Source of the DNA: a virus
Taxonomy: Duplodnaviria; Heunggongvirae; Uroviricota; Caudoviricetes
Virus record (IMG/VR): IMGVR_UViG_3300045988_011059
Location: 1-44,609 of that record
DNA: 44,609 bases
Direction: 5' to 3' (one strand)
Position numbers and translations under genes: made by a program. How positions within the stretch are numbered: position 1 is the stretch's first letter; the number at the start of each line of letters is the position of its first letter. Below are positions 12,378-21,376 of this stretch, one piece after another. Below the pieces are notes generated by a model that ran no database searches, was not told the origin of the DNA, and saw only the letters and a program-made list of their open reading frames with translations.

Positions 12378-12790
12378 TGGGCTACTTTGAGGACTTAACA
12401 AAAGCGTTCGACGTGCCGCTGGTAGCCTTCGGAACCACCAACGGCATCAAGGTAGCACTTGAAAACATCGACGCGCCGACGTCAACCGATACGCCGTATC
12501 TGGCTAGTTACATGTTACTCGCGGATACGGAACAGGCTGATTTGTTCTTCACGGAACAACGCGCTGGCGTCTACCAGGTAGATATTAACTACGCATCGGT
12601 GAAAGGTAGCGCGCCGATCAATAAAATGGCAGACTTACTTAACACGGCGTTTAAAGCAGGTAAGTCATTTTCACGTAACAACATCTGCGCCGAGGTTCAA
12701 TCGGTTAGCCTGGGGCCACTGATTGTAGAAAACGGATGGGCAAAACGACCATTGTCAATTAACTTTATTGCATTCACCAAGAGGCTGTGA
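12374..12790 (+). CDS. Tail completion / terminator protein (putative)
   Basis: ORF track; directly precedes the major tail protein. Confidence 0.45.
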   Translation: MMGYFEDLTKAFDVPLVAFGTTNGIKVALENIDAPTSTDTPYLASYMLLADTEQADLFFTEQRAGVYQVDINYASVKGSAPINKMADLLNTAFKAGKSFSRNNICAEVQSVSLGPLIVENGWAKRPLSINFIAFTKRL

Positions 12791-12792
12791 AT

Positions 12793-13959
12793 ATGGCTAC
12801 AACTCCTTTTAAGGGCGCGAATACCGCGCAATTCTATGTGGCGGAAGTCACCCCGGGCGTAACACCGGCTAACCCGGTCTGGTCACCGTTGCGTAACACT
12901 GGCGGTGTTCCTGCTATCACCCGCGACACGCTGACCTCCAACGAACTGGACGGCAGCCGTGAAACTACATCCATCCGCACCGGTAACAAACAGGTTAGCG
13001 GTGAATACGCGATCGAGCTTAGCTCGAAAAGCCAGGATGACTGGCTGGCGGGTGCTTTAGGCTCTACGTGGCGATCCGGTGTTTCCCTGTCCAGTCTGTC
13101 GATTACCGTCGCACCCGCAGGCAAGACGTTCACACGCGCTACCGGCAGTTTTATCACTGACGGAGTTGTGGTAGGCGACCTGATTGCATTTACCGATTTA
13201 ACAGGCGATAACGCAAAACCATTTATTGTTACTGCAGTAACGGCTACGGTTGTTACTGGTGCAGGCATCCAACACACCCTGACCACCGAGACAAAAACTA
13301 GTAAGGCTAAAACCGGCGACACGCTGGAAACCGGTAACACGTGTAAGACGTTCTCTATCCTTACCTGGTACAAAGGCCAGTGCGGCGGTACTGACGCGTA
13401 CACGTTAACCAAAGGCGTGGAAGTTTCTGGTTTTACCATCGAACAGGCTGTTAACGCGATGGTAACTGGCAGCTTCCCATTCATAGGTCGCAGTCAGGAG
13501 ATTCTCACTACGCCGCCGACCGATTCCAACTTCTCATCTGTTACTTTTGGCGATGAGCCGTTCTCTTCGGTTGACGTTTCCGTGTTCGATGGCTCTACGC
13601 CGTTGCGTTGCGATAGCCTTACCATCACCAACGATAACAGCGCATCTGCGCAGTTCGAACTAGGCAACACTAACGTAGCGTTTGTGGAGCGTAGCCGTGC
13701 AGCTAACACCTTCTCCATCTCCGGTAAGCTGTATGACATGGCGATGATTCAGAAGTTTATCAACGAACAGCAGGTGGAGATTAACTCTATTCTGGCGGGG
13801 GTAAACGGAGCTATGTCTTTCAGTTTGAAACGTGCAGAACTCACGGCGGTTACACCAGAGATTGGGGGGCCTGAGTCAATCACTCAGTCCATTGAAGGCC
13901 AGGCTACCGGCAACCAGTACCAGTCGTCTATTGTTATCCAGCGTATCACCTACGCATAA
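12793..13959 (+). CDS. Major tail protein
   Basis: About 390-aa Thr/Ser/Gly-rich protein with AAGAGG RBS, followed by a strong terminator; positional. Confidence 0.7.
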   Translation: MATTPFKGANTAQFYVAEVTPGVTPANPVWSPLRNTGGVPAITRDTLTSNELDGSRETTSIRTGNKQVSGEYAIELSSKSQDDWLAGALGSTWRSGVSLSSLSITVAPAGKTFTRATGSFITDGVVVGDLIAFTDLTGDNAKPFIVTAVTATVVTGAGIQHTLTTETKTSKAKTGDTLETGNTCKTFSILTWYKGQCGGTDAYTLTKGVEVSGFTIEQAVNAMVTGSFPFIGRSQEILTTPPTDSNFSSVTFGDEPFSSVDVSVFDGSTPLRCDSLTITNDNSASAQFELGNTNVAFVERSRAANTFSISGKLYDMAMIQKFINEQQVEINSILAGVNGAMSFSLKRAELTAVTPEIGGPESITQSIEGQATGNQYQSSIVIQRITYA

Positions 13960-13988: not shown

Positions 13989-14163
13989 ACTCACTTTTGA
14001 ATGGCATTTCATAGAAGTTAGTTAACTGGCCTCGATCACTTCGTTCTGTCATTTCTTTTGAGGCCTCCTCCTTGCTACCAACGGCGTAAATATCGACCCA
14101 CTCGTCCCATTCTTCGTCGAATACGCGGATTACATATATTGTTTTCATAATGTTTTCACGCAT
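13987..14163 (-). CDS. Hypothetical acidic small protein
   Basis: ORF track frame; start at ATG 14163 or 14148; last gene of the minus-strand cassette. Confidence 0.4.
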   Translation of the reverse strand: MRENIMKTIYVIRVFDEEWDEWVDIYAVGSKEEASKEMTERSDRGQLTNFYEMPFKSE

Positions 14164-14725
14164 TTGGGTAAATCCCCAGGATTCTATTAGCAATCGCAGC
14201 CGCTGTTAATGTAATCTCGCCCGGAACGACGGCGACGTCATGGTGCACTACCCCATCAATATCGTACAGATAACCACGGCTGTCATCCTCAAACGTATAG
14301 CCGTCACGATGAAGGCGAACGATTCTCACGTCATGACCCGCGGCGACGATAGGAGTCACTTCACTGGCGAATCCGCCATCAGACACTACAAAAACTTCGT
14401 TGCCGTCTGGCAAGTTTTCAGCAAGATACTTACCGAAATAATCATTGCCAAGTACAGGCTTAATGAATTGCTCCGAGATAGCAATCATGAACTGACGTCG
14501 CGACAACCCATTAAGGAAACATTCTGGCTTTTCTTTCCGTGCCCGGTCGTCGTAGCCGTCGAGAAACTCATGGTAAGCATCCGGACCTAACGCCGCCAAA
14601 GCAATATTGAACATTGGATTCTTGAAACTGGTAGTTCCTTTCGCAAAGCCCATTTCTACCAGTGCCATAGCAAGCGTGTCTTTCCCGCAACCCGCAGGAC
14701 CATTAAGAATAATTACCTTAGCCAT
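14156..14725 (-). CDS. P-loop nucleotide / polynucleotide kinase-like protein
   Basis: Walker A GPAGCGKDT near the N-terminus, like the G-x-GKDT P-loop of T4 dNMP kinase. Confidence 0.65.
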   Translation of the reverse strand: MAKVIILNGPAGCGKDTLAMALVEMGFAKGTTSFKNPMFNIALAALGPDAYHEFLDGYDDRARKEKPECFLNGLSRRQFMIAISEQFIKPVLGNDYFGKYLAENLPDGNEVFVVSDGGFASEVTPIVAAGHDVRIVRLHRDGYTFEDDSRGYLYDIDGVVHHDVAVVPGEITLTAAAIANRILGIYPNA

Positions 14726-15210
14726 TATTTATCGCTCCCATGTGGCTTTAAGTGTGAAGAGTTCCCGTTACAGTCATATTCGGTAACCGCGTGAGTGGTT
14801 ATGCCGAGTTCGCGGAAATGCTTTATTACCGCGGGAGAGTCGTCGAATGCGCACAAGATTCTTTCCAGCCCGATAGCACGTAGCACCTCTTCCTTAATTA
14901 CGATGTCTTTTCTGTTGTCGTGTTTGCTGCGCATGATTAACTGGTAAAATTCGACGCGGTGGCGCTGCAACCACATTCTTGTTTCTTTTTCCGCGTCATC
15001 ACTGCGGCCCGTTAAAATAACAACGGCGTAGCAGCGATTAAGGGCGTTACACAGTTCGATGTTATCTATAATTGGTTCATCATCTTTGCACGCCATGTTA
15101 AATGGTTTCCACGCCCAGGTTTCGCCGTAGTTATCTTTCGGCAGCAGGTGTAAACGATGAGTACCATCCGCCAATGTCCCGTCTAAATCGAAAATCACAA
15201 TATCTTTCAT
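14725..15210 (-). CDS. HAD-superfamily phosphatase, T4 Pnk phosphatase-domain-like
   Basis: N-terminal IVIFDLDGTLA (DxDGT), then LTGRS and RKD...KEE...DD motifs in the same order as the T4 polynucleotide kinase 3'-phosphatase domain. Confidence 0.7.
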   Translation of the reverse strand: MKDIVIFDLDGTLADGTHRLHLLPKDNYGETWAWKPFNMACKDDEPIIDNIELCNALNRCYAVVILTGRSDDAEKETRMWLQRHRVEFYQLIMRSKHDNRKDIVIKEEVLRAIGLERILCAFDDSPAVIKHFRELGITTHAVTEYDCNGNSSHLKPHGSDK

Positions 15211-16337
15211 CCCAGCATCTCCGGTGAAATAGTTAAACGTGCGACCTCGCCAAATTCGGCGCTATAAGTAATTACATTTGCGCTACGGCCCGACATCCAA
15301 CCTCCGCGGGAGGCGTAGGCGTCTTTAGCCGCTAAGGTGCGGTGTTGCTCAACAATCATGTTACGGCTTTCCACAATCTTCTGATGGTGCAGGTGTCCTA
15401 CATGGGCGTAGCTGTAAACACTCTCACCGAACGCTTTGCGGAACTTGGCGATCATAACCGGTTCGATAGCGTCGAAGCGTGCTTTATGTCCGTGGTGAAA
15501 GAACAGCGTCGTTTTGCCGTGTTGCACCATCTTGTAAACATCCGGTGACGTATCGACGAACACACGCGGCTCATTGTCATACAGCGTACTGAACATCTCA
15601 GCCAACCAAATCATGCCACTTTCGTCGTGATTCCCTTGCACGATAAGCAAGCGAACATTTTTATGCTTAACCAGCGCCATATCGACAACACGGCGGACCA
15701 TGCGAATCATGTAGCGGACAAGTTTCTGGTAACGGGTGTCGGCGTCAAGGGCGTGACCGCTTGCAGGTGTAACGGCAACCAGACTATCGAAGTGCGCGAA
15801 GTCGCCCAGCAGGTTAATAACCCCAGTCCCCGCATCCGGTGCTTTCTGAAACGCCGCGTCGAACCAGCGAGAGAACAGGTCTTCCGCAATCTTCATATCC
15901 CAGTCGTCGCCGCTCTCGTCGGCCCAGGCCAGCATACCGAGATGAAAATCGGATACAGTGTAAAGATTAAGCAGTTTATCGTCGCGTTTGGCTCGGGTTG
16001 CTTTAACAGGTGCAACCGGAGTAATCTCTGACTTCATGCCTTCGATTACGGCTTTCATCAACTCGACCTGACGTTCTGCGTCTGTGTCGGTCTTAACCCA
16101 TTGCAACTTAGTGTTGCCGAACTCGTCCACAAGTGACGACGTTCCTTTAATCTTGTAGCCATCTGGCACAAGGTGACTAACGTCGCGCCCGTGGCCTACG
16201 CCTTTCTTAGCCAGCTTCGCTTTACGGATGCGAATAACGCGGTCTGAGATGCCGTATTTACGGGCGATGTCGATATTCTTCATACCGGCGTTCAATTCTT
16301 CCTGCAACTGTTCGTCGGTTATTTTCTTCCTGGCCAT
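15207..16337 (-). CDS. Calcineurin-like metallophosphoesterase with N-terminal HTH
   Basis: Motifs D-x-H (SDFHLG), GD (LLGDFAH), GNHD (QGNHDE), GHxH (HHGH / GHLHH); N-terminal NIDIARKYGISDRVIRIRKA resembles an HTH. Confidence 0.7.
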   Translation of the reverse strand: MARKKITDEQLQEELNAGMKNIDIARKYGISDRVIRIRKAKLAKKGVGHGRDVSHLVPDGYKIKGTSSLVDEFGNTKLQWVKTDTDAERQVELMKAVIEGMKSEITPVAPVKATRAKRDDKLLNLYTVSDFHLGMLAWADESGDDWDMKIAEDLFSRWFDAAFQKAPDAGTGVINLLGDFAHFDSLVAVTPASGHALDADTRYQKLVRYMIRMVRRVVDMALVKHKNVRLLIVQGNHDESGMIWLAEMFSTLYDNEPRVFVDTSPDVYKMVQHGKTTLFFHHGHKARFDAIEPVMIAKFRKAFGESVYSYAHVGHLHHQKIVESRNMIVEQHRTLAAKDAYASRGGWMSGRSANVITYSAEFGEVARLTISPEMLG

Positions 16338-16401
16338 GCTTATTCCTCGTGCTTAGGATTTGTCCTATTTAACCACAGTGCATTCCTTTAAATAAAGGCG
16401 A

Positions 16402-16728
16402 CTATTTACTTTCTGCGCCTATTGCCCACCCAGTCATTACCATTTGCAGGCGGGTGGCGGTCAGTAGGCTGTAAACCGCGTCTCCGTTTTTCTCTACAGA
16501 ACGTATTACCGTGTATGTTACGGCTTGCGGAGGCAGGCCCGATTTACCAACCTCTACGGCTGCCTCACACTCGCGAACGGTAGAGTCCTTAAATGCCTTT
16601 ACAATAGTAGGGTCGGCTCTATCAAGCACACCAGAAGTCATAAGAACGGATTCACTAAACACCTGTTCACACGGAGACCCAAAAGTAGCAAAAGACATAA
16701 AACCAAGAGCTAACACTAATTTACGCAT
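16402..16728 (-). CDS. Secreted / periplasmic protein with signal peptide
   Basis: N-terminal MRKLVLALGFMSFATFG is a classic signal peptide; no lipobox. Confidence 0.6.
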   Translation of the reverse strand: MRKLVLALGFMSFATFGSPCEQVFSESVLMTSGVLDRADPTIVKAFKDSTVRECEAAVEVGKSGLPPQAVTYTVIRSVEKNGDAVYSLLTATRLQMVMTGWAIGAESK

Positions 16729-16756
16729 AATTATTTCCTCAGTAAGTTACAGGTGA

Positions 16757-16785
16757 ATAGTACCCTATTATATCGGGGTGTGCAA
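16757..16785 (-). promoter_or_regulatory. Early-type promoter TTGCAC-N17-TACTAT (minus strand)
   Basis: Reverse complement reads TTGCACACCCCGATATAATAGGGTACTATTCAC, near-identical over about 33 nt to the promoter at 39230-39258. Confidence 0.55.
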
Positions 16786-16892
16786 GTAGTGTGCTAGAAT
16801 AAGTTTGCGCCTAGTGTCGCACACGAAAAGCGGGTGGTTCCCGTCTGGCGCGTCAACCTTAACCTGTAACCTCTTAACCAAAGGACTAAAGA

Positions 16893-17309
16893 ATGAAACT
16901 TTCTGATTTCTATTTTGCTGACCGACACGCTGCCGGTACTAAAATGCCTATCCTTCTGCCGAGTGGTAAAGACTCCGGAGAATGGTTGCAGGTCATTGGT
17001 CCTGATTGTGATGTCGGGGTTCGCGCGGGCCGCGCCTACACAACGGCAATTCGACGCCTTACGGAAGAACTTGCGCCATTAGATAAAGAGTGTGAGGCAC
17101 TGAATAACTGGGCGCGTTATAATGATGAGAAGGGCTGGCGGGTGATGGACCTGAACAAGCAGCTTGCCGTGGAAATCGTCACCGGTTGGTCATTCGACGA
17201 ACCGTTCAGCAAAGAGGCGCTGGCTAACCTGTTTGACCAGTACAGTGGGTTGGCAGAAGCCGTAGTTAAGCACCACACCGATAGCCGCGAGAAACTCTCG
17301 GAAAAGTAA
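16893..17309 (+). CDS. Tail assembly chaperone (G-like)
   Basis: 138-aa ORF immediately upstream of the tape measure gene. Confidence 0.6.
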   Translation: MKLSDFYFADRHAAGTKMPILLPSGKDSGEWLQVIGPDCDVGVRAGRAYTTAIRRLTEELAPLDKECEALNNWARYNDEKGWRVMDLNKQLAVEIVTGWSFDEPFSKEALANLFDQYSGLAEAVVKHHTDSREKLSEK

Positions 17310-17671
17310 AAGCGCTGTATGAATTTGCGCAATGGTGCTTTGTCGACCGCCAGAAACGTAAGCAATTCGACGACATCGCGGCGGGGCACCAGGCGGCTTT
17401 GATTGCAATGGGCGTGATTAAAGAACCGCAGATGAAAGAAGCGACGGGGCCAGAATGCCCCGTTTCTCTTATCGACGTGTTCGAGAAATACCGTGCCATT
17501 AAATTCCTACAGCGCGAAACAGATGATACTATCGTTATAATCCCGCGCGATGCGCTCAAATGGCAAGATTTGGTAGCGTTTCGTGATGTCGCCGGTTACG
17601 GCATAAGTTTGTTCGAAGCCGAGGTTATCATGGGCTTAGACGGAATATTTGAGGGCAGAGAAGATGGCTGA
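17285..17671 (+). CDS. Putative -1 frame extension of the tail assembly chaperone (T-like)
   Basis: The -1 frame is open from 17285 and overlaps the last 25 nt of the chaperone; no ATG or RBS of its own; ends overlapping the tape measure start. Confidence 0.4.
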   Translation, partial: PRETLGKVKALYEFAQWCFVDRQKRKQFDDIAAGHQAALIAMGVIKEPQMKEATGPECPVSLIDVFEKYRAIKFLQRETDDTIVIIPRDALKWQDLVAFRDVAGYGISLFEAEVIMGLDGIFEGREDG

Positions 17672-19976
17672 TACGGCTTCCCTAATCGCCAGAGTAAAAA
17701 CTGAAGGGGCTGACGTCGCTGCCAAACAGCTTGACGCTATGGCGGCATCCGCAGACCGGGCGGACACATCTGTAAACAAACTAACGCCGGATGTTAATAA
17801 AGTTAACACCGCCACCTCTAAAGCAGCGTCCGACGGTTTCGCTAAGTTCCGTAACGCTGCTGGGCAGGTTGGTTTCCAGGTGCAGGACATGGTAGTCCAG
17901 TTGCAATCCGGTACGTCTGCATTCGTTGCGATAGGGCAGCAAGGTTCCCAACTTGCTGGCGCTTTCGGCCCTGGTGGTGCGGTGCTCGGGGCGGTAATCG
18001 CTCTAGCATCAGCAATTGGTGGTGTCCTGTACAAATCACTAACCGAAGCAGAAGGCAGTTCAAAAGACCTCGAAGCTGCGCAGAAGCAGTTAAAGGATAC
18101 TTTCCAGCAAACGGCATCTGGCTCCCTCGAACTGACAGACGGCCTTATCCAGCTTACCCAAATCAGCAGAGAAGCGGCGGAGACTCAGCTTGCTCTGGCT
18201 AAGGCTAACGCAGACCTTATCGCGCAGCAAACAGCTAAAGCTGTCCGCGAGGACGCCGAGTCATGGGAGACATGGAAAGCCTCCACGGCATCCGCTATTA
18301 GCCAGTACGATGCATTGGTCTCTAAGGGTGCGGATGTAGGCGACACGTTAGAAAAACTTGGCGGCACTTACGAGGGTAACATCGTAGGCGTCAACATGCT
18401 GGCGCAGAATATAGCGGAGCTTAGCAGTAAGTTCGGGGTTAACCGTGACCAGGCGCTGGAGATGATAGCGGCGCAGAGCGCGTTTAACAAAGAGCCAACC
18501 GCCGAGAATGCCCGCCGCATCGCCGATGTGTTTACCGACTGGCTCGGTAACACAAAACAGTTGAACCCGGAACTTATCCGCCTGACTGACAACGCCAACA
18601 AGAACGCCACGGCACTGGAGAACGCGGAGAAGTCAGCAAACGCGGCAGCAGAGGCCCAAAAGAATCTCGGTCGTAACGTTAACTCAACCACGCAGAGGTT
18701 CCAGGAACAGAACGAAGCTATCGTCAAGAATCAGCAAATTGCCATCTTAAGCGACCGCGAACGCATCCGGGCGCAAGCTGAACTGGACAAGCAGGCATTC
18801 GCTAAGCGTGAAGCTGTCACCAAAGAACAGATAGCCGCGTATAACGCAGCCCGTGACACGGAAGCACAGCAAGACATCGCTCGCATCGACGCGACCGAAA
18901 AAGCGAAGGCAGACCGCGAGGCTAAATCGAACGAGAAACGTCTGGCGGCGCAGGCCAAACGTGAAGAAACGGCGGCACAACGCCAGAAGAAAGCCGCGGA
19001 AGATTTCCTCGCTACGGTTGACCGTACAACCGGAGATGAAATTTCTCGCATCACGGCGGCCGAAGAGCAGAAACTGGCGAAACTTGAAGAGTTCAACCGC
19101 GCCGGAACGATAAGCCAGCAGCAGTATGAAAACGCCAAAACTCAGATTATGCTGGAGGCGGATACCGCACGGCAGCAAGAATTGGATAAGCGCGAGAAAG
19201 AACGGCAGGAGAAAAAGCAGAAAGGCGACGACTTCATGGCTCAGATTATTGGCCAGAACGCTACTGAGCTTGAGCTTCTCGACATCCAGGAGCAGCAGAA
19301 ACTGGCGGTCGCAGATAAGTACCGTGAGCAAGGGCTTATTAGTGAGAAGCAGTATCAGGCCGCGCTTAACGCCATCAACGAGCAATACGCCACCAAGCGT
19401 GCCGACGCAACGGCAACCGCCTTCGGTAACATGGCGTCAAACATCGGGTCTGCGTTGGGCGAGGCCTCTGGTGCGTATAAGGCATTCGCTATCGTACAGG
19501 CCACCATAGCCACGTACACCGCAGCTATCGAGGCGTACAAGTCCACGGCGGCTATCCCTGTAGTTGGCCCGTTCCTGGCCCCCGTAGCCGCTGCCGCTGC
19601 CGTTGGGGCGGGTATGGCGCAGGTTTCCGCTATCCGGTCCGCGCGTGAACAGGGCGGACAGTTATCCGCAGGGCAGGCTTCCACCATCGCAGAACGCGGT
19701 AAACCGGAAGTTATCATGCCGGCCGGCGCATCCCGTGTGCGCACCGCCCAGCAGATGAAAGAAATTATGGGGCAAAACGGGTCTTCTTCAGGCCCGTCTA
19801 ATGTTACTATCGTAAACAACACGAGTTCTCAAATCAGCAACGTATCCACCGAACAAGATGATGAAGGGCGTCTTCGTATCATCATCGAAGAGCAAGTGGC
19901 AGCCTCTTTGCAGAACAGCAACAGTAAGATTAGCAAGGCCCGCAAGGCCACAAGAAATGCGCCGGGGTTCAAGTAA
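17664..19976 (+). CDS. Tail tape measure protein
   Basis: About 770-aa Ala/Gln/Glu-rich coiled-coil protein with a hydrophobic segment, directly after the chaperone genes. Confidence 0.85.
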   Translation: MADTASLIARVKTEGADVAAKQLDAMAASADRADTSVNKLTPDVNKVNTATSKAASDGFAKFRNAAGQVGFQVQDMVVQLQSGTSAFVAIGQQGSQLAGAFGPGGAVLGAVIALASAIGGVLYKSLTEAEGSSKDLEAAQKQLKDTFQQTASGSLELTDGLIQLTQISREAAETQLALAKANADLIAQQTAKAVREDAESWETWKASTASAISQYDALVSKGADVGDTLEKLGGTYEGNIVGVNMLAQNIAELSSKFGVNRDQALEMIAAQSAFNKEPTAENARRIADVFTDWLGNTKQLNPELIRLTDNANKNATALENAEKSANAAAEAQKNLGRNVNSTTQRFQEQNEAIVKNQQIAILSDRERIRAQAELDKQAFAKREAVTKEQIAAYNAARDTEAQQDIARIDATEKAKADREAKSNEKRLAAQAKREETAAQRQKKAAEDFLATVDRTTGDEISRITAAEEQKLAKLEEFNRAGTISQQQYENAKTQIMLEADTARQQELDKREKERQEKKQKGDDFMAQIIGQNATELELLDIQEQQKLAVADKYREQGLISEKQYQAALNAINEQYATKRADATATAFGNMASNIGSALGEASGAYKAFAIVQATIATYTAAIEAYKSTAAIPVVGPFLAPVAAAAAVGAGMAQVSAIRSAREQGGQLSAGQASTIAERGKPEVIMPAGASRVRTAQQMKEIMGQNGSSSGPSNVTIVNNTSSQISNVSTEQDDEGRLRIIIEEQVAASLQNSNSKISKARKATRNAPGFK

Positions 19977-21376
19977 TGAGCGACTTATATTTCCCACGTA
20001 GCCTTAAGCCAGTGGTGTCAAAAGGCTACTCAATGACCAGACGCAACAACGTCTGGAGTGTTGATTTAGCCGGTGGCGGGGTGCGTCAGGGCCGTGACAC
20101 GTATTACGACGTGTTCCCTGTTAGCGTAACCCTGATTACATCCGCAATGGGGCGACAGGCGTTTCTGTCGTTCCTCGAAAAAGTAGACGGCGGTGCGTCA
20201 AGTTTCTGGATGGCGCACGACTTCGGCATGGGCATCGAAGATTATCAGGTAACAATCACATCCACCATCGCGGAGTCCACCGAAGACGGCATTAACTGGA
20301 CGATTACCTTCACGGCAACCGCCGAGAAATCGCCGTTCCAGGACCAAGAGAACCAGTGCCTGATTAACAATCTTCCAGATTTGTACGGTTGTTACGGGGA
20401 TTGTCTGGGTAGTTTCCTGAAAATATATGCGAACTATGAGACGACGTTCCCTCGCATCTGGAGCAATGAAGGGCCTGCAGGATACCCGCCGATTAACCTT
20501 CTGGCGTCGACTCTTGATAGCCGCATTGTGTATGACGGGCCGCAGGTTTATTACATCAACCGCAACGGCAATCTTGTGCAGTCCGCTGCCGATGAATGGC
20601 CTCTTACGTTTATCGATGGGGTTGCTGTCGGGCGCGTACCTCCTGACAATGGGGTGGTCAATTTTCTAACACAATCATCTAATCTTTCCGAAACATCGTG
20701 GAGCAGGACAAGAGTAAACGTGATTTGGGCCTCTGACGAACTGTCTACGGACTACACGTACAGCCTGATACCAACTGCGGTATCCGGAAGTCATTCTGTA
20801 CAACAGATAGTTACCGGTAGTTTTATGGATGGATCAAAGTATACATTCTCTTGGTGTTTCAAGTCTTACGGGTACAGGTTTATACGGTTGCGCGTATATG
20901 ATGATATAGGGGTACTAGGCGATTCTGTTGTAGACCTGTCTGACGGCGAGGTGTCTTCCGGGGCGAGCGGCACTACTGTGACTAACCTCGGTAGCGGATG
21001 GTTCCGCGTAACAGAAACAATAACATTCTCGTCAGCTAAAGGGTCGGCATACTTAGGCATAATGGCATGGGTGTATAACTCCGCAACAGGGTCATCATTC
21101 ATCGGAGATGGGGTTAGTGGGGTACTGTCTTGTGCCCCGCAAATGGAGCGTAGTAGTTTCGCGACATCACCTATAATCACAGGACCATCGCCCGTTACTC
21201 GGTATTCCGCAACTGCAAAAGTAGCAATGAACGGCGCAACAAGTATCGACATCACCTACTCCGACAGCTCTGTGGTAAACGTTCAGGCTGTTGATGGCTA
21301 CGCCGCCATACCACGGGCTAATTCAGCGTGGGGGAGTAAATATATCACCCGTATTGATTTTAATGTGGACGGTTAA
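19976..21376 (+). CDS. Minor / distal tail protein
   Basis: First gene after the tape measure (TAATG overlap); C-terminal two-thirds visibly more AT-rich. Confidence 0.6.
   Translation: MSDLYFPRSLKPVVSKGYSMTRRNNVWSVDLAGGGVRQGRDTYYDVFPVSVTLITSAMGRQAFLSFLEKVDGGASSFWMAHDFGMGIEDYQVTITSTIAESTEDGINWTITFTATAEKSPFQDQENQCLINNLPDLYGCYGDCLGSFLKIYANYETTFPRIWSNEGPAGYPPINLLASTLDSRIVYDGPQVYYINRNGNLVQSAADEWPLTFIDGVAVGRVPPDNGVVNFLTQSSNLSETSWSRTRVNVIWASDELSTDYTYSLIPTAVSGSHSVQQIVTGSFMDGSKYTFSWCFKSYGYRFIRLRVYDDIGVLGDSVVDLSDGEVSSGASGTTVTNLGSGWFRVTETITFSSAKGSAYLGIMAWVYNSATGSSFIGDGVSGVLSCAPQMERSSFATSPIITGPSPVTRYSATAKVAMNGATSIDITYSDSSVVNVQAVDGYAAIPRANSAWGSKYITRIDFNVDG

Follow-up and report, generated by a model that had tools for sequence, protein, structure and literature searches.

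A predicted −1 frameshift where the gene for the tail assembly chaperone ends

Comparison of homologous phage sequences points to a programmed −1 slip at G_GAA_AAG, where gene G for the tail assembly chaperone ends, that would yield a 259-aa fused protein, GT, and would be stimulated by a long-range RNA helix; we put the probability of this reading at about 0.75. The window (the whole stretch of DNA analysed, 44,609 nt) comes from a Kagunavirus (Guernseyvirinae) siphophage, and over bases 16700–18200 it shares 99.9% identity with Escherichia phage SZH-1 and ~94% with many K1G/K1H-like phages. The tail module has the following features.

12787–13959: tube protein gene (PF18906)
14156–16728, minus strand: inverted nucleotide-metabolism gene cassette
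16893..17309, plus strand: G, tail assembly chaperone (0 frame; ATG 16893, TAA 17307–17309; 138 aa, 15.6 kDa)
17282..17284, plus strand: upstream TAG of the −1 frame; the shift has to fall between here and 17309
17306..17671, plus strand: T segment (−1 frame; GTA 17306–17308 to TGA 17669–17671; 121 codons)
17664..19976, plus strand: tape measure protein gene (PHROG 1538, E = 1.6e-200), which starts at ATG 17664 and shares its first 8 nt with T
Downstream of the tape measure gene: minor tail proteins of the same tail module

The gene order tube, G, T, tape measure is retained, despite the 2.9-kb cassette between the tube gene and G. The cassette encodes a dNMP kinase, a polynucleotide kinase, an exonuclease/phosphatase and a 108-aa protein without assigned function; at the place of the two kinases SZH-1 has two small hypothetical ORFs, and Serratia phage Smarc3 is without the inverted cassette. 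With these 2.9 kb inverted between the tube gene and G, G is the first gene of a separate plus-strand transcription unit. Next to the tape measure gene, on its downstream side, a gene at 19976–21376 encodes 466 aa, with PHROG matches to tail proteins and, at the N terminus, to a virion structural protein, and its counterpart is annotated as 157 aa in the otherwise near-identical SZH-1, which may reflect a module exchange or a difference in annotation.

G matched positions 1–138 of PHROG 15027 and the Pfam family PF08748 (Phage_TAC_4; 36.2 bits, cut-off 21.1), and T matched positions 137–259 of the same PHROG and PF23812 (Phage_TAC_18; 64.5 bits, cut-off 27). Thus both fall in tail assembly chaperone families, and PHROG 15027 covers the two contiguously. 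Since this family of 259 positions matches G over 1–138 and the −1 frame over 137–259, fusions of this geometry had been deposited earlier. The predicted GT, join(16893..17306,17306..17671), would comprise 259 aa (29.3 kDa) and read ...REKLSEK/VKALYEFAQW... (the slash marks the junction), with a VxALYxFAxW motif that is conserved from the first −1 codon on.

The −1 frame is open for 128 codons (17285–17668) and ends at TGA 17669–17671, and the remaining two frames of 17310–17672 contain seven stops each. The initial annotation had described this frame as open over the last 25 nt of G and on to 17671, into the start of the tape measure gene, and its coordinates were confirmed. It had also stated that the frame has no ATG or Shine–Dalgarno sequence of its own, which stood in part: ATG 17408 and TTG 17399 are present in the window as candidate starts, whereas the first 31 −1-frame codons after the G stop contain no ATG, GTG or TTG, and no Shine–Dalgarno-like sequence precedes 17408.

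Database records treat the −1 frame in several ways. The GenBank record of SZH-1 has a 'hypothetical protein' that begins at ATG 17408, and EF2-1 likewise starts a CDS at that ATG. In Bas70 (L002, 2116) and PBSE191 (L007, 1223) a second 'tail assembly chaperone' CDS begins 6 nt past the G stop, at CTG and TTG respectively, and these starts look like an annotation artefact of a missed frameshift. A joined 'pre-tape measure frameshift protein' is already annotated in Smarc3, which is 61.5% identical. No natural in-frame G–T fusion was found when the fused sequence was searched against 5.8 billion predicted proteins, all 28 matches being of G length, and a PDB sequence search found no relative. 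Salmonella phage SS3e (L006, AY730274.2, 1100–1300) was considered as a single-frame G–T fusion and rejected; its junction is identical to that of its relatives, and the 2-nt offset lies upstream and is probably a sequencing error in this 2005-era record.

The −1 frame evolves as coding sequence ahead of ATG 17408

We analysed the ~100 nt between the G stop and ATG 17408 (17309–17407) in 48 distinct relatives. Read in the −1 frame, the third codon position had an entropy of 1.33, compared with 0.64 for position 1 and 0.57 for position 2, and synonymous changes made up 43% of the codon differences, as against 9% and 4% in the other frames. None of the relatives had a −1-frame stop in this interval, and no conserved start codon before 17408 was found among the 48. 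The ATG at 17408 itself is kept in 42/48 relatives and replaced by an Ile codon in the other six. These results support the view that the −1 ORF is a real coding extension of G, and the comparative evidence as a whole supports a programmed −1 frameshift.

A conserved A_AAG tetramer abuts the G stop codon

The elements around the junction are as follows.

17300..17306, plus strand: slip site G_GAA_AAG (putative), with the conserved core A_AAG at 17303–17306
17307..17311, plus strand: spacer UAAAA, 5 nt, which holds the 0-frame stop
17312..17326, plus strand: helix 5′ arm GCGCUGUAUGAAUUU, which begins 5 nt past the slip site and has a GC-rich base, GCGC
17443..17464, plus strand: internal hairpin GACGGGGC-CAGAAU-GCCCCGU, which encodes GPECP and is present in the MFE and centroid structures
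17501..17515, plus strand: helix 3′ arm AAAUUCCUACAGCGC, which pairs with 17312–17326

The overlap reads CGC GAG AAA CTC TCG GAA AAG TAA. It contains no in-phase X_XXY_YYZ heptamer, and A_AAG at 17303–17306 is its sole in-phase Z_ZZN motif. Thus the initial annotation was right that a textbook heptamer is lacking, and its nearest candidate, GGAAAAG, is borne out as the site that holds the conserved core. We compared the overlap in 68 distinct homologous contexts, in which the identity of G ranges from 100% down to 43%. In all 68, G ends in NNA_AAG_TAR, with positions −4 to −1 invariant, and the G/GT-type arrangement that had been proposed from the window is supported by these relatives. The variants of the site are GGAAAAG (48 contexts), [ACG]GCAAAG (14), GGTAAAG (5) and GGGAAAG (1). 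The codon before AAG may therefore be GAA, GTA, GCA or GGA (Glu, Val, Ala or Gly), always with A as its wobble base; because the residue varies and the third base is fixed, the constraint acts on the nucleotide and not on the amino acid. Likewise, Lys-138 is invariably encoded by AAG, compared with 29 AAA and 19 AAG codons for another conserved lysine residue.

The position of the shift is narrowed further by the upstream −1-frame stop, whose distance from the G stop ranges from 16 to 205 nt across the relatives. Since in some of them the −1 frame opens only 16 nt before the stop, the shift must occur there. In the window, in-phase A_AAG is found at 40 of 13,517 codons, and among 64 approximate ORFs only G is terminated by A_AAG followed directly by a stop. 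The arrangement is beyond chance.

More distant homologues, at 30–35% identity (L052, L054–L056), have canonical in-phase heptamers, T_TTT_TTC and A_AAT_TTT, in the same overlap, indicating that frameshifting is habitual in this chaperone family. In one close relative (L045, IMGVR_UViG_2974654489_000001, ~1908–1914) a single A-to-G change, Glu to Gly, produces exactly the λ site G_GGA_AAG, and the site of the window type is thus close to canonical.

Of the −1 tetramers, A_AAG performs best in E. coli by a wide margin, and hexamers of the NNA_AAG type serve in IS1222 and are present in B. subtilis cdd (PMC4066793, PMC5009743). Judged from its sequence, A_AAG in an NNA_AAG context followed by a stop falls into a known class of −1 slip sites in E. 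coli and is no anomaly. Without a stimulator, A_AAG gave 0.147% frameshifting in E. coli against a background of 0.112%, and a stimulator is needed. The bare tetramer being this close to background, the argument for frameshifting leans on the helix described below. An announcement of the related phage Shashou states that there is 'no canonical slippery sequence', and our literature searches found no frameshift study of a Jerseyvirus or Kagunavirus. A Shine–Dalgarno-like stimulator was considered and rejected, as the GG at −7/−6 is too near the slip site for spacing of the dnaX type; we take this GG to be the first bases of the GNA codon and of the heptamer.

A predicted long-range helix with two alternative 3′ partners

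Among 58 conserved degenerate codons, zero synonymous variation was found only at residues 138, 139, 141 and 142 (AAG GTA nnn GCG CTG). These frozen codons show that the constraint reaches 11 nt beyond the slip site. The perfect complement of the invariant GCGCUGU, ACAGCGC, is present at either ~+202 or ~+128, but in no case at the two together. From +5 onward, 7 bp or more of uninterrupted helix can form with the distal partner only in 37 of the 68 contexts, with the proximal partner only in 27, with both in none and with neither in four, three of which have 6 bp. Thus 64/68 contexts have such a helix, compared with 4/340 control arms.

In the window the helix consists of 14 bp and one U17320–C17507 mismatch; the duplex alone amounts to −17.3 kcal/mol, with its arms ~190 bases apart. 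Its pair probabilities were 0.88–1.00 whether 240, 500 or 1008 nt were folded. The domain 17307–17525 has a folding energy of −79.5 kcal/mol (z = −4.16), which was equalled by none of 200 shuffles. Single-sequence shuffles of synonymous codons were exceeded only weakly, at 43/300 for the window with a range of 2 to 137/300 across sequences, because much of the complementarity is already dictated by two peptide motifs; it is therefore the comparative data that carry the argument for the helix.

RNAalifold predicted the helix independently in the distal-partner and the proximal-partner clades. In the alignments 87–90% of the cells were paired, compared with 14–51% in slid registers. The covariation score was reached by 0/500 shuffles, with compensatory changes at three to four pairs per clade, although a few lineages supply much of the covariation. 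In L016/L017 three adjacent pairs of the helix have changed in a compensatory manner. In L134, L067 and L076 a U–A pair has become C–G, through a synonymous change in a Tyr codon on one side and an Ile to Val replacement on the other. The Jerseyvirus lineage L007/L004/L223 has the arm GCGUUGUUUC opposite GAAACAACGC, forming a perfect 10-bp helix, and a pattern scan for the GCGTTGT arm variant detected one further member of the same lineage and nothing else. The 3′ arm of the proximal clade falls within a variable linker, where the codons NCA GCG CNN encode Thr/Ala/Pro, Ala/Thr and Arg/Gln/Pro; there the amino acids vary and the paired bases are retained. The non-Watson–Crick cells are G–U rather than A–C, as expected if the structure is one of the sense-strand RNA. 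Taken together, a conserved long-range helix 5 nt after the slip site, which does not figure in the initial annotation, probably makes a weak site work.

Several other structural candidates were examined in this region. An early result of 'no stimulator', in which RNAalifold returned no structure for an alignment of 136 nt that stopped at +124 and the first 114 nt had no more stable a fold than shuffled sequences (z = +0.64), was an artefact, as the end of the alignment cut off the 3′ arm. A local 4-bp hairpin (GCGC...GCGC) was rejected, having only three conserved pairs and no covariation. A scan for terminator-like structures picked up the GC-rich hairpin at 17443–17464, within the enclosed domain, on both strands; in phages of the proximal-partner clade this hairpin lies 5 nt past the 3′ arm and covaries (AU/GC, GC/UG/CG). 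Rfam covariance models (dnaX, IS1222 and others) gave no match in 17200–17720, with two sub-threshold chance matches at E of about 2.

Proposed mechanism and alternative explanations

On the preferred reading, most ribosomes would stop at TAA 17307 and release the 138-aa chaperone, and a minority would shift by −1 on 17300–17306. When GAA occupies the P site and AAG the A site, the mRNA entrance would be where the helix has its base, and the helix (17312–17326/17501–17515), enclosing a structured domain of ~175 nt, would resist translocation and so favour re-pairing of tRNA-Lys. The single E. coli tRNA-Lys, a poor match to AAG, would re-pair with AAA at 17303–17305, and the P-site tRNA-Glu would retain two of its three pairs on GGA; in the lineages with GCA or GTA before AAG, P-site re-pairing is poor. 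After the slip, GTA AAA GCG CTG... would be read on to the TGA at 17671, with ...LSEK/VKALYEF... at the junction. With the stop in the spacer, unshifted ribosomes would never translate the domain, and the slow-folding long-range structure could persist. By analogy with λ, G and the G part of GT may coat the tape measure protein and the T part may recruit the tube protein. Long-range stimulators are unusual at bacterial frameshift sites. The full architecture, namely a minimal A_AAG set against the stop, a long-range helix in place of a local hairpin or pseudoknot, a 3′ arm that relocates between ~+125 and ~+200 and a domain protected by the stop, is somewhat better than an even bet in our judgement.

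The stop codon raises a different possibility, in which the tRNA slips from the P site at A_AAG during slow termination, competition with the release factor sets the ratio of G to GT, and the helix has some other use, for instance in keeping the mRNA stable, in controlling how the tape measure gene is translated or in processing. The stop abuts the slip site in every one of the 68 contexts. It is TAA or TAG, mostly TAG, and never TGA, although with TGA the first −1 codon, GTG, would still encode Val; the ORFs of the window end in TGA in 24/64 cases and in TAG in 5/64. The fourth base is in every case A or C, reportedly a weak termination context (Poole et al. 1995). Thus the use of TAG and of A or C after it may reflect selection on termination kinetics. 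The geometry of the helix speaks against this: the 5′ arm is fixed 4–5 nt past the slip site with the 3′ arm at either of two places, which suggests a function linked to a ribosome at that site, and the spacing is canonical for A-site or translocation-coupled slippage. We regard this explanation, taken as a whole, as unlikely; the two mechanisms are not mutually exclusive, however, and P-site slippage during slow termination may contribute to frameshifting.

Could T instead be an independent gene, begun at ATG 17408, TTG 17399 or CTG 17315 or reached by termination–reinitiation, with no fusion at all? The separate starts annotated in SZH-1, EF2-1, Bas70 and PBSE191 and the retention of ATG 17408 in most relatives would fit. 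However, the 100 nt that precede 17408 show the evolution of a −1-frame coding sequence, the position of the start is not conserved, and 17408 lacks a preceding Shine–Dalgarno-like sequence. The CTG at 17315 is found in 46/48 relatives, yet it would be a very poor initiator, and the Ala codon directly before it is invariant. An independent T would also leave the invariant A_AAG and the wobble A of an otherwise variable codon unexplained, and according to review text the T domain of λ has to be joined to G in order to function. We consider this explanation very improbable. Still less credible is transcriptional slippage, in which RNA polymerase would drop one A from the short A run at the site: the run comprises four A in the window (AAAA) and only three in the GTA, GCA and GGA lineages, known slippage-prone runs are far longer than this, and neither the conserved phase of A_AAG nor a helix at ribosomal spacing would be expected. 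Ribosomal slippage at A_AAG, stimulated by the helix, thus remains the reading that we prefer.

Comparison with known frameshift systems

The G/GT frameshift of λ and its conservation in long-tailed phages have been described (Levin 1993; Xu 2004, 2013, 2014, summarised in PMC5009743). As in λ, the tape measure gene is directly preceded by two overlapping ORFs, of which the second is in the −1 frame, the minor fused product (predicted here from sequence) shares the N-terminal chaperone domain, and the A-site AAG is read by a single tRNA-Lys. Unlike in λ, the site is G_GAA_AAG or, in relatives, another NNA_AAG with no X_XXY_YYZ, a conserved long-range helix follows it, and the tube gene is parted from G by the 2.9-kb inverted cassette. 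To our knowledge, λ needs no downstream structure. No sequence similarity to λ G or T was detectable, and the Pfam families are Phage_TAC_4 and Phage_TAC_18. The slip site abuts the stop here, whereas in curated phage sets it lies on average 26–36 nt from the stop.

An in-phase A_AAG is shared with IS3 (A_AAG plus a pseudoknot), IS1222 (G_CGA_AAG) and B. subtilis cdd (A_CGA_AAG) (PMC4066793, PMC5009743). As at the IS1222 and cdd sites, the tRNA of the preceding NNA codon cannot fully re-pair, and as in IS3 a GC-rich stem (GCCGC in IS3) lies ~5 nt downstream, its stimulatory effect being a prediction in the present case. Unlike in these three systems, the gene concerned is one of phage morphogenesis and not a transposase, and the helix closes a loop of ~175 or ~115 nt rather than a compact pseudoknot or hairpin. 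The general plan of a basal helix by the slip site, with its partner far downstream and further structure enclosed, is known from the three-way junction of IS911 and the long-range pairing of luteoviruses (BYDV). Those cases concern other organisms and genes, and in the phages studied here the 3′ partner has switched between two sites, the 5′ arm staying where it is; we know of no description of such a relocation for IS911 or BYDV.

Significance

The biology itself is the expected G/GT one; what is new is a defined slip site and a conserved long-range helix with a switched 3′ partner. Phages of the Guernseyvirinae (Kagunavirus, Jerseyvirus and relatives) rank with the most frequently isolated therapeutic phages of E. 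coli and Salmonella. The module is present in 513 GenBank records, in nearly all of which T figures as a 'hypothetical protein' of its own and is given an arbitrary start, CTG included; a defined join site would correct those annotations. Frameshift predictors that rely only on a heptamer plus local structure would miss such a case. The cassette offers a natural test of a weak tetramer boosted by a distant pairing partner, and the two alternative partner positions amount to a ready-made evolutionary swap experiment. If the proposed mechanism is true, it would stand as a distinct architecture among the −1 frameshift cassettes of bacteria or phages, and it would explain why annotators have seen 'no slippery sequence' in this large phage subfamily.
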